Shown: positions 17,964 through 18,467 of the stretch, piece by piece
How positions within the stretch are numbered: position 1 is the first letter of the stretch
Layout of the letters: every line of letters starts with the position of its first letter
Assembly (NCBI GenBank): GCA_030446545.1
Contig: JAUJNB010000001.1
Coordinates: forward strand, 280,885-344,884
Length of the DNA: 64,000 nt
Reading direction: 5' to 3'
Origin: Acidimicrobiales bacterium
Lineage (GTDB): Bacteria; Actinomycetota; Acidimicrobiia; Acidimicrobiales; CADCSY01
Made by a program: the position numbers and the translations under genes
Notes under the pieces: model-generated
What the model was told of the DNA's origin: nothing
Databases searched by the model: none
The model's input: only the letters and a program-made list of their open reading frames with translations

Positions 17964-18467
17964 TCAACCGTTGAAGGTGATGGTCCGGTCGGCCTCTTCC
18001 AGGTTGCGGGCGAAGGTCTCCGAGGCGGTGCCGAGGTCGCCGTAGGCAGTGTCGATGTTGCCCATGATGGTGTTGAAGTCGCCCTCGACCATCGAGACGA
18101 ACTCGGTGGCCCGGGCCATCATGAACGTCTTGAACTCCTGGACGGAGTCGAGGGCGTTGGTCAAGACGTTGTCGACCTCGCTGTTGAGGGCGGCCTCGGT
18201 GTCGGTGGCGGCAGCCTGGCTGGAGCCCTCCCAGTCGGTGGCGGCCAGGCGGTTCTTGGCGGCGGTGATGGCGGAGCGCAAGCCGTCGGCCAGGTCGATG
18301 AAGCGGGAGGACAGCACCTCGGTGACGTCGGTGACCTCACCCTCCATGGTGTTGGAGAAGTTGGTGGCCTCGGATCCGGCGTCGACTGCGGCGACACCGG
18401 TGTCGGTCATGACTCCGGCGGTCGAGTTGATGTCGGAGACGTTGCCCCCGATACGAGCTGCGGACAT
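17964..18467 (-). CDS. WXG-like helical protein (167 aa), candidate secreted substrate
   Basis: No signal peptide or TM segment. Rich in Ser/Thr/Asp/Ala and helical. Central motif LAATDWEGSSQAAATD (W-x-G followed by small residues). A strong RBS GGAAGGGGAA precedes the ATG, and 166 nt of non-coding sequence lies upstream. Confidence 0.55.
   Translation of the reverse strand: MSAARIGGNVSDINSTAGVMTDTGVAAVDAGSEATNFSNTMEGEVTDVTEVLSSRFIDLADGLRSAITAAKNRLAATDWEGSSQAAATDTEAALNSEVDNVLTNALDSVQEFKTFMMARATEFVSMVEGDFNTIMGNIDTAYGDLGTASETFARNLEEADRTITFNG

Follow-up and report, generated by a model that had tools for sequence, protein, structure and literature searches.

The window analysed here, a stretch of 64,000 nucleotides from contig JAUJNB010000001.1 of an Acidimicrobiales bacterium with a GC content of about 72% (~70-77%), carries on its minus strand a gene that lies between tadC and a gene for a Flp-like small protein and is the subject of this report. 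We call its 167-residue product WXG167 and use WXG165 as the label for the family of its relatives of about 165 residues. An earlier note on this DNA had described the product as WXG-like, and had seen in it the best candidate for the core secreted substrate of an FtsK-like ATPase or, alternatively, a pilus-associated subunit. The open reading frame (ORF) named there, the strand of which had been left unstated, held up on examination: it begins with ATG, comprises 167 codons on the minus strand, shows GC fractions of 0.55/0.48/0.92 at the three codon positions, which is coding-like for this genome, and has homologues; a chance ORF was rejected on this conservation. The neighbours are likewise as described, with tadC (its T2SSF-bearing ORF at 18634-19158) upstream and the 72-residue Flp-like gene and three TadE-like genes downstream. 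An antisense ORF on the plus strand (18049-18486, 145 residues) with a GC fraction at third codon positions (GC3) of 0.92 covers the gene almost wholly and could mislead gene callers. Its GC3 is high because its third codon positions fall on those of WXG167, and we rejected it as a shadow ORF, WXG167 being conserved.

As claimed, the protein is rich in Ala (15%), Thr (12%), Asp (8.4%) and Ser (8.4%); it contains no Pro, Cys or His and has an isoelectric point of 4.05. The N-terminus is acidic and polar, and the earlier statement that a signal peptide is lacking agrees with our finding of no signal peptide, membrane or hydrophobic segment in the protein (maximum Kyte-Doolittle value 0.72 over 19-residue windows). 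The central motif of the note, TDWEGSSQAAATD, occupies residues 77-89. The gene is monocistronic, with no esxB-esxA-type pair.

The spacer between the ORF and the stop codon of tadC measures exactly 166 nt, and the gene does have its own upstream non-coding region of the length given before. Its Shine-Dalgarno (SD) sequence, GGAAGGGGAA at 18473-18482, lies five nucleotides ahead of the ATG. This SD had been called the strongest in the cluster, which it is not: the energy of its duplex with the anti-SD is -10.4 kcal/mol, strong nonetheless, and is surpassed by those of tadB (-12.4) and of the LysM gene (-12.6). Further upstream, a candidate -35 element TGGACT (18544-18549) and a candidate -10 element TAGCCT (18520-18525) are separated by an 18-nt spacer. 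Comparison with a relative (locus L033) revealed that the 166/167-nt leader has diverged save for its last ~50 nt, which include the SD, and for the TGGACT and TAGCCT blocks, which lie 17-18 nt apart across the two. TGGACT and TAGCCT would make a credible -35/-10 pair for a high-GC actinobacterium; because a generic sigma-70 and terminator scan of 17500-19000 returned no sites, we infer this promoter from the two-species footprint.

Conservation and predicted fold of the WXG165 family

A word-indexed search yielded 22 homologues of WXG167 with identities of 54-100%, all of about 165 residues, and an exhaustive HMMER profile search, which covered 1.84 billion cluster representatives, found 107 of them at E<=1e-3, 83 at E<=1e-10. 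Our family alignment holds 89 near-full-length members (162-171 residues, mean 165.8) and reaches down to 19% identity; a related-locus search with alignment A1 returned seven loci from genomes and eight from metagenomes. The public names of the members, which come from Egibacteraceae and Acidimicrobiales metagenome-assembled genomes (MAGs), are nearly all 'hypothetical protein', two Joint Genome Institute (JGI) entries bear evidently wrong labels, and the family falls under no Pfam or NCBIfam model. Scanning the window with the family hidden Markov model (HMM) disclosed no second copy of WXG167 and only very weak signals, at 27370-27804 on the plus strand and in the 94-residue ORF next to the toxin gene (WXG94, Table 1).

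Just three columns of the 89-sequence alignment are conserved at 90% or more, W79 (82/89), G81 (88/89) and D160 (87/89, the remaining two being E). Four positions before D160 the family has a hydrophobic residue in 93% of its members (L59/F18/M6 of 89 at position 156), and three positions after it mostly I or V (I56/V8 of 89 at position 163). Judged by the per-column counts, the hydrophobic spacing along both helices appears heptad-like. W79, G81 and D160 together with L156 match exactly, as read from the sequences, the bipartite export motif WxG + ΦxxxD borne by the EsxA homodimer, in which the exchange D87A stops EsxA and every LXG toxin from being exported (Shah et al., PMC13355648). They also conform to the superfamily-wide C-terminal pattern HxxxD/ExxhxxxH (Poulsen et al., PMC3935865) by way of L156, D160 and I163, the last H falling at or beyond the C-terminus and being unconserved. 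In addition, a second motif, R-I-G-G-N, is found at the N-terminus of ~80-90% of the members (I6 in 70/89, G7 in 72/89, G or A at position 8 in 79/89); it has no counterpart in canonical WXG100 proteins or EsxA, and in a hairpin I6-G7-G8 would adjoin the C-terminal LxxxD motif.

Two AlphaFold2 runs with different alignments, of 22 and 32 sequences, both predicted a highly helical protein, as the earlier note had expected, with helices at residues 6-77 and 82-166 in one model (mean predicted local distance difference test score, pLDDT, 80.5) and at 2-75 and 82-163 in the other (pLDDT 81.2). The turn comprises residues 76-81 in both models, with the D-W-E-G motif, and the pLDDT exceeds 90 around it. 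WXG167 is thus predicted to be a single antiparallel helical hairpin of ~105 Å, with the helix-turn-helix topology of the WXG100 superfamily and with W79-E-G81 within the predicted turn, where the superfamily has its WxG. If residue 77-k packs on residue 82+k, D160 would come to lie a few residues past the N-terminal end of helix 1, like D87 of canonical EsxA. A fused EsxB-EsxA double hairpin was considered for WXG167 and rejected, the models having two continuous helices and the protein a single WxG.

Profile matches and genomic context in relatives

The WXG100 models are the sole specific recurrent profile matches of the WXG165 family: PF06013 matches 41 of the 89 members at E<=0.1 (best E 2.3e-7) and TIGR03930 matches 33 (best 1.2e-7), every other NCBIfam model reaching six members at most. 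A profile-profile comparison with WXG100 by hhalign gave a modest, WxG-centred result, both against six canonical WXG100 sequences (P 1.4e-4, probability 53%, 46 columns) and against a retrieved alignment of 61 canonical sequences (P 2e-4, probability 47%, 43 columns). The near-invariant residues of the latter alignment, G45 and D87, correspond to the G and D of WXG165. A profile search of the PDB listed EsxB and HP0062 in the WxG register at E~0.4, and phmmer of WXG167 against PDB sequences returned nothing.

The strongest evidence for a link to a type VII secretion system (T7SS) comes from synteny. On at least 10 independent contigs the WXG165 gene lies immediately 3' of, and on the same strand as, a gene for an EssC-like ATPase with FHA and FtsK/SpoIIIE domains (Table 1). 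These ATPases are ~1415-1510 residues long, the gap to the WXG165 gene is 12-235 nt on contigs with gene calls, and they are orthologous to the ATPase of the window (33846-38090) with scores of 350-1650 bits. The linkage to an FtsK/SpoIIIE ATPase that is typical of WXG100 genes is seen as adjacency in relatives and, in the window, as the same cluster and strand, the EssC-like gene following tadA 15 kb upstream of WXG167. T7SS hallmarks accompany the ATPase-WXG165 pair, namely EspG, RHS or T7SS_signal toxins and a Ser/Thr kinase; EspG adjoins the ATPase in L006, and both L001 and L006 have a homologous kinase next to their WXG167 homologue. The large RHS/YD-repeat toxins (DUF6531 and RHS repeats) beside the pair are found in two distant relatives, L023 (12044-16774) and L026 (1-3316), and toxins of this kind have been reported for other T7SS variants too.

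A Tad-like locus occurs within 10 kb of the pair in L001, L023, L026, L027 and L032. Because a small flp-like gene directly follows tadC in L001, L026 and L032, the slot between tadC and flp is normally empty, as had been asserted, and the position of WXG167 in it is a lineage-specific rearrangement, unlike the family's normal context. In the tad loci of related genomes, where the earlier note had suggested looking for the gene, it occupies the tadC-flp slot of a 90%-identical relative, which turned up in three samples (L033-35), and the slot is empty in the three more distant loci. In that relative the whole segment from tadB to the toxin gene is collinear with the window, and its tadC is intact, with 301 residues. 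Compared with L036-38 and L001, the T7SS and tad operons of the window are interleaved; co-location of T7SS and Tad genes is seen repeatedly.

The Egibacteraceae-type contigs L004/L005/L017/L018, L030 and L008/L031 carry a WXG165 homologue (at ~10001-10501 in L004 and L030) that lies downstream of lexA at a distance of ~110 nt, on the same strand and opposite rpmA-rplU; such copies could point to regulation linked to the SOS response or to a decoupled paralogue. In Acidimicrobiaceae MAGs a gene for a different protein of ~195 residues lies directly upstream of the FHA-EssC-like ATPase gene. This protein has two hairpin-like halves, with turns that read YFGPNA and then TDWEG, and looks like a fused EsxB/EsxA-type relative with a shared TDWEG core.

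Interpretation, rival explanations and related systems

Taking the predicted fold, the WxG/ΦxxxD motif, the profile matches and the synteny together, we consider that WXG167 most likely belongs, as an elongated member or an offshoot, to the WXG100/EsxA superfamily, and that it is probably the EsxA/TsxA equivalent of an undescribed actinobacterial T7SS variant built on the FHA-EssC-like ATPase, which supports the earlier proposal of a WXG100-like core substrate. Several results weigh against this assignment. With 167 residues against ~97, WXG167 exceeds the classical WXG100 proteins by ~70 residues, as previously remarked, and is far from the ~100-residue length of the superfamily; its match to PF06013 is sub-threshold (E 0.024; 15.3 bits where 27.3 are required; residues 65-104, spanning the WxG), it has no match to TIGR03930 at E<=1, and a search of NCBIfam returned nothing meaningful. 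The hhalign probabilities given above are just 47-53% and cover ~45 columns, and the family HMM scores canonical EsxA and EsxB at 13 bits or less. Foldseek against the PDB returned no match below E 0.1, finding only generic long hairpins (chemoreceptors, Vipp1, ClyA, SteB/RipA), and no WXG100 chain was among its top 50. Some WXG165 members, the lexA-adjacent ones of Egibacteraceae, have no ATPase within 10 kb, and among the window ORFs scanned no EccB/D/E, EssA/B or EsaA was detected. Because of its length and its score under the profile threshold, we set WXG167 apart from plain WXG100 members.

Monocistronic sagEsxA-like genes encode homodimers (Poulsen et al., PMC3935865), and by analogy WXG167 would form a head-to-tail homodimer, a four-helix bundle of about twice the usual length and of the same diameter. 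Each end of this bundle would present a composite signal made of the WxG of one protomer, the L156xxxD160 of the other and the N-terminal I-G-G, which the EssC-like protein would read with its C-terminal ATPase domains and so export the dimer. Export of WXG167 would probably be, as it is in T7SSb, a prerequisite for export of the T7SS_signal toxin and its 94-residue partner, and the Ser/Thr kinase of the cluster may gate the system via the FHA domain of the ATPase, as the analogy of T7SSc/d suggests (PMC11217815). The T7SS operon of this lineage (ATPase, WXG167, WXG94, toxin) would have become interleaved with its tad operon (tadA-tadB-tadC-flp and three tadE genes), which would account for the presence of WXG167 between tadC and flp with its own 166-nt leader, strong SD and probable promoter.

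Tight synteny with the ATPase would suit any kind of partner, and WXG167 could instead stay in the cytoplasm and assist the EssC-like ATPase there, as an adaptor, chaperone or activator akin to Lap or EsaE that binds the T7SS_signal of the toxin or the ATPase and is not itself exported. Its hairpin resembles the Lap targeting factors, although Foldseek placed LapA3 and LapA4 (8gmh_C, 8gmh_E) at E values of just 0.7-0.9, and among the weak, scattered matches of the family to other T7SS helical families, which include PE, there are YwqH-like ones in three members and EspC in four. However, the invariant residues are the export signal of secreted WXG100 proteins, Lap genes adjoin the toxin rather than the ATPase and here the 94-residue gene fills the toxin-adjacent slot, and minimal contexts such as the P0012 contig have the ATPase and WXG165 but no toxin close to them; we regard such a role as unlikely. 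A component of the Tad pilus, whether a minor subunit, a factor in its assembly or a protein at its tip, acting with TadB/TadC and Flp, appears very unlikely to us, even though such a role would account for the place of the gene between tadC and flp, the order tadB-tadC-WXG167-flp and three tadE genes is kept in the three samples of the 90%-identical relative, the five contigs named above have their Tad loci close to the pair, and T7SS-Tad co-location is known for T7SSg/h in Bacillota (PMC11217815). WXG167 has neither a class-III (prepilin) leader nor a hydrophobic N-terminal helix nor a TadE/Flp Pfam match, and as a pilin proper it was rejected for its lack of a hydrophobic N-terminus; members in L006 and on the P0012 contig have the ATPase but no tad genes, others stand alone near lexA, the tadC-flp slot is empty in the tad loci of other relatives, and throughout the family the gene next door is that of the ATPase rather than a tad gene. 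The pilus-associated alternative of the earlier note is weakened by the same absence of a prepilin-type N-terminus and by the ATPase-linked members without tad genes.

WXG167 might also be an amphipathic coiled coil without relation to WXG100, similar in type to apolipoprotein, PspA/Vipp1 or ElaB, membrane-binding or stress-responsive, with a coincidental WxG. The Pfam Apolipoprotein model matches 73 of the 89 members (best E 1.5e-8), the PDB profile search was topped by apolipoprotein A-IV (E 6.5e-10) and dominated by apolipoprotein and designed helical repeats, Foldseek found Vipp1 at E~0.4, one homologue carries the JGI label ElaB/YqjD/DUF883, and the lexA-adjacent copies hint at stress regulation. 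Nevertheless, WXG167 scores 20.2 bits on PF01442 against a cutoff of 90 bits, and the Baculo_PEP_C matches of the family lie at ~20 bits against a cutoff of 38; since these are overlapping, low-score helical repeats far under their cutoffs, we judge the Apolipoprotein and Baculo_PEP_C matches to be compositional, and likewise the apolipoprotein and designed-repeat matches in the PDB. Moreover, a coincidental WxG leaves the invariant W, G and D and the synteny with the ATPase unexplained, and we hold this explanation to be highly improbable. It is also conceivable, if rather doubtful, that the T7SS module and the Tad-like pilus module form one integrated, co-transcribed machine for contact-dependent delivery, in which the double length of WXG167 could fit a Tad-derived envelope conduit or pilus and its tadC-flp position could reflect assembly order or stoichiometric coupling. 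We keep this idea under consideration because the operons are interleaved both in the window and in L033-35, Tad lies near the pair on at least five further divergent contigs, and no other T7SS membrane component was found among the ORFs scanned.

If WXG167 is indeed an EsxA equivalent, its closest parallel by motif is T7SSb EsxA (EsxA of S. aureus, S. agalactiae and S. intermedius; YukE of B. subtilis), with which it shares the hairpin, the WxG turn, the C-terminal ΦxxxD/E, the absence of a Sec signal, the single gene, an adjacent EssC-type ATPase with FHA, and the invariant W, G and D. The two differ in that T7SSb EsxA has ~97 residues, with 44 residues from W to D, whereas WXG165 proteins have 162-171, each helix being ~35 residues longer and W and D being 81 residues apart. 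Furthermore, WXG165 belongs to Actinomycetota and T7SSb EsxA to Bacillota, the similarity is confined to ~45 columns around the WxG, and EssA, EssB, EsaA and EsaB of T7SSb were not found near WXG167. Among T7SSc-j, which were described by Garrett, Higginson & Palmer 2024 (PMC11217815), T7SSd is the actinobacterial one (Olsenella/Bifidobacterium) and comprises TsdA (WXG100), TsdC (FHA-ATPase), TsdD (Ser/Thr kinase), TsdH and TsdI (PMC11217815). The system described here resembles it by gene content, sharing the phylum, the FHA-ATPase, the Ser/Thr kinase and nearby RHS or LXG-like toxins, and no ubiquitin-like TsxB is evident among the window ORFs scanned. In contrast to T7SSd, where TsdA is a WXG100 protein, it has the ~165-residue family that lacks a Pfam assignment, as well as EspG-like chaperones and Tad genes, and its hosts are Nitriliruptoria/Egibacteraceae and Acidimicrobiia; in the window ORFs that were scanned we recognised neither a TsdH-like gene nor a giant Ig-repeat protein of the TsdI kind.

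T7SSg and T7SSh of Bacillota are always adjacent to Tad genes, for a reason that is unexplained, and T7SSh has an EspG-like protein (PMC11217815). Like them, the window system has a T7SS ATPase and a WXG protein co-located with a complete Tad locus, but TsgC and TshC lack FHA, and the loci are adjacent there whereas they are interleaved gene by gene in the window. LXG proteins with Lap, PE/PPE, EspB and T7SS_signal (PF21725) are likewise elongated antiparallel helical T7SS bundles with composite signals at one end; those, however, are N-terminal effector domains or obligate heteromers beside an effector, whereas WXG167 is a stand-alone protein of a family found beside the ATPase. Comparing WXG167 with these long helical targeting domains gave no significant profile match in Pfam and no significant fold match in Foldseek.

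To our knowledge, EsxA-type WXG100 proteins are the one universal T7SS substrate, and the size of ~100 residues is part of the family name. If our reading is correct, an export signal kept at doubled hairpin length suggests that the ATPase reads the geometry of the bundle end and not the length, and WXG165 would serve as an experiment of nature on how much length the T7SS channel tolerates. It would also mark an undescribed, possibly minimal T7SS variant (FHA-EssC and WXG165) of deep-branching Actinomycetota (Egibacteraceae/Nitriliruptoria-like, Acidimicrobiia); in the literature searched, no connection of T7SS to Nitriliruptoria, Egibacter or Acidimicrobiia came up. Because public entries are named 'hypothetical protein' or mislabelled, a WXG165 profile would improve the detection of T7SS in metagenomes. 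Finally, T7SS-Tad co-location would be extended from Bacillota (T7SSg/h) to a second phylum, and a functional link between the two would be worth testing.

Layout of the cluster and further observations

The cluster runs on the minus strand in the order Ser/Thr kinase, LysM, RcpC/CpaB, a 386-residue ORF, tadA, FHA-EssC-like ATPase, an island of ~13 kb, tadB, tadC, WXG167, flp, three tadE genes, the 94-residue WXG-related gene and the T7SS_signal/DUF2515 toxin gene. The features of the window and of the related contigs are collected in Table 1.

Table 1. Features of the window, followed by features of related contigs
Feature	Position or contig	Strand	Basis or remark
Ser/Thr protein kinase, cluster head	42355..43854	minus	Pfam Pkinase 1.7e-47
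RcpC/CpaB-like Tad component	40620..41225	minus	Pfam RcpC 1e-6, SAF 4e-6
tadA (T2SSE ATPase), directly upstream of EssC-like gene	38103..39476	minus	Pfam T2SSE 1.3e-35
EssC/TsxC-like ATPase, 1414 aa: FHA, predicted membrane segment, FtsK/SpoIIIE P-loops	33846..38090	minus	Pfam FHA 1.3e-14, Yop-YscD_cpl 6.6e-13, FtsK_SpoIIIE 8.2e-37 (two stretches), C-terminal P-loop matches
Seven paralogous ORFs	20479-20997, 23411-23977, 25731-26135, 26247-26780, 26777-27217, 28403-29119, 29171-29920	minus	
EspG-like chaperone gene in the ATPase-tadB island	23926..24879	minus	PF14011 E 7.6e-6, 26.1 bits (cutoff 27)
tadB-like gene	19546..20388	minus	position equals that of the 280-aa ORF upstream of T2SSF in L033/L034, 526 bits; no Pfam match of its own
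tadC (T2SSF), two overlapping ORFs via frameshift	18634..19562	minus	Pfam T2SSF 8.4e-11
Intergenic spacer, 166 nt, with SD and candidate promoter	18468..18633	minus	sequence reading; comparison with relative L033
WXG167 coding sequence, double-length WXG hairpin protein, candidate EsxA/TsxA equivalent	17964..18467	minus	ORF, GC3, homologues, AlphaFold2
I6-G7-G8 codons, part of N-terminal R-I-G-G-N motif	18444..18452	minus	conservation
W79-E80-G81 codons, WxG at hairpin turn	18225..18233	minus	conservation, models, WXG100 alignments centred here
L156-E-E-A-D160-R-T-I163 codons, ΦxxxD(xxh) export-type motif, seven residues before C-terminus	17979..18002	minus	conservation, literature pattern
Flp-like small hydrophobic protein, 72 aa	17666..17884	minus	hydrophobic core, follows tadC in relatives; no significant Pfam match
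Three TadE/TadG-like pseudopilin genes	17238-17636, 16813-17241, 16385-16774	minus	Pfam TadE 1.3e-14, 4.3e-8; Tad 2e-9
Small helical WXG100-related partner (WXG94), 94 aa, just upstream of toxin gene	15922..16206	minus	weak matches
Candidate T7SS toxin, N-terminal T7SS_signal and DUF2515	14353..15915	minus	PF21725 2.4e-13, PF10720 2.4e-6
ATPase-WXG165 adjacency	L001-3		ATPase split, 790 + 605 aa
ATPase-WXG165 adjacency	L006/L019		
ATPase-WXG165 adjacency	L009/L020		Acidimicrobiia, 36% identity
ATPase-WXG165 adjacency	L023-25, L026, L027, L028, L032		members just 20-25% identical to WXG167
ATPase-WXG165 adjacency	L036-38		compact order: ATPase, WXG167 homologue, 96-aa WXG94 homologue, T7SS_signal toxin
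ATPase-WXG165 adjacency	P0012 contig, 36 kb		housekeeping genes around pair; no toxin or tad genes nearby
~195-aa protein	L011 ~4620-5214; L012-L014 ~9640-10225; L021 2646-3248; L022 ~1680-2261		

Several genes next to WXG167 deserve comment. The split of tadC, into ORFs of 143 and 174 residues, results from a switch of frame at 19173-19230 near a C-run, as located by alignment to the intact TadC of L033; the distant TadC proteins of L001 and L026 gave no tblastn match in the window, and it was the close relative L033 that resolved the frameshift, which may be either an assembly indel or a genuine pseudogene. The Flp-like gene has a GTG start preceded by the SD TAGGAGG. The weak matches of WXG94 are to TIGR03930 (E 0.005) and PF06013 (E 0.14), and its homologue stands directly after that of WXG167 in L036-L038; in L037 the toxin homologue lies downstream of the ATPase, the WXG167 homologue and the 96-residue gene, in that order. 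Around 14600-14700 in the toxin gene the GC3 signal moves between frames, an overlapping minus-strand ORF (14012-15037) there being protein-like, and the last ~100 residues of the 520-residue toxin translation, rich in R, P, S, T and C, appear out of frame, which suggests a second frameshift.

Pfam scans of 17 ORFs of the island between the ATPase gene and tadB gave almost no annotation, and part of the island's genes are duplicated. Seven paralogous ORFs of the island share the motifs YEGPHGP, RLDG.RHTSF.DPV and RRRRGI with no Pfam match, and EspG-like genes are found among them at 23926-24879 and 29704-30909, with 33123-33821 being EspG-like by eye; the paralogues and EspG-like genes may represent an array of effector, immunity or chaperone cassettes. 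Direct repeats of 78-93% nucleotide identity (11791-13418 and 21465-23083; 14194-14378 and 23147-23326; 20420-21222 and 23355-24155) reveal that a cassette of two plus-strand genes, as well as a piece of the toxin gene's 3' end, is present in duplicate, flanking the block from tadB to the toxin. These repeats fit recombination or orphan-module dynamics and may be a cause of the interleaving of the operons. Lastly, two small ORFs contain W-x-G-type motifs, one at 27424-27804 (plus, strand ambiguous; ALWEGRAAEA), which has weak matches to PPE (E 4e-4) and EspB_PPE (E 2e-3), and one at 32238-32852 (minus; LGAWSGASR), and both may encode further helical T7SS substrates or partners within the island.

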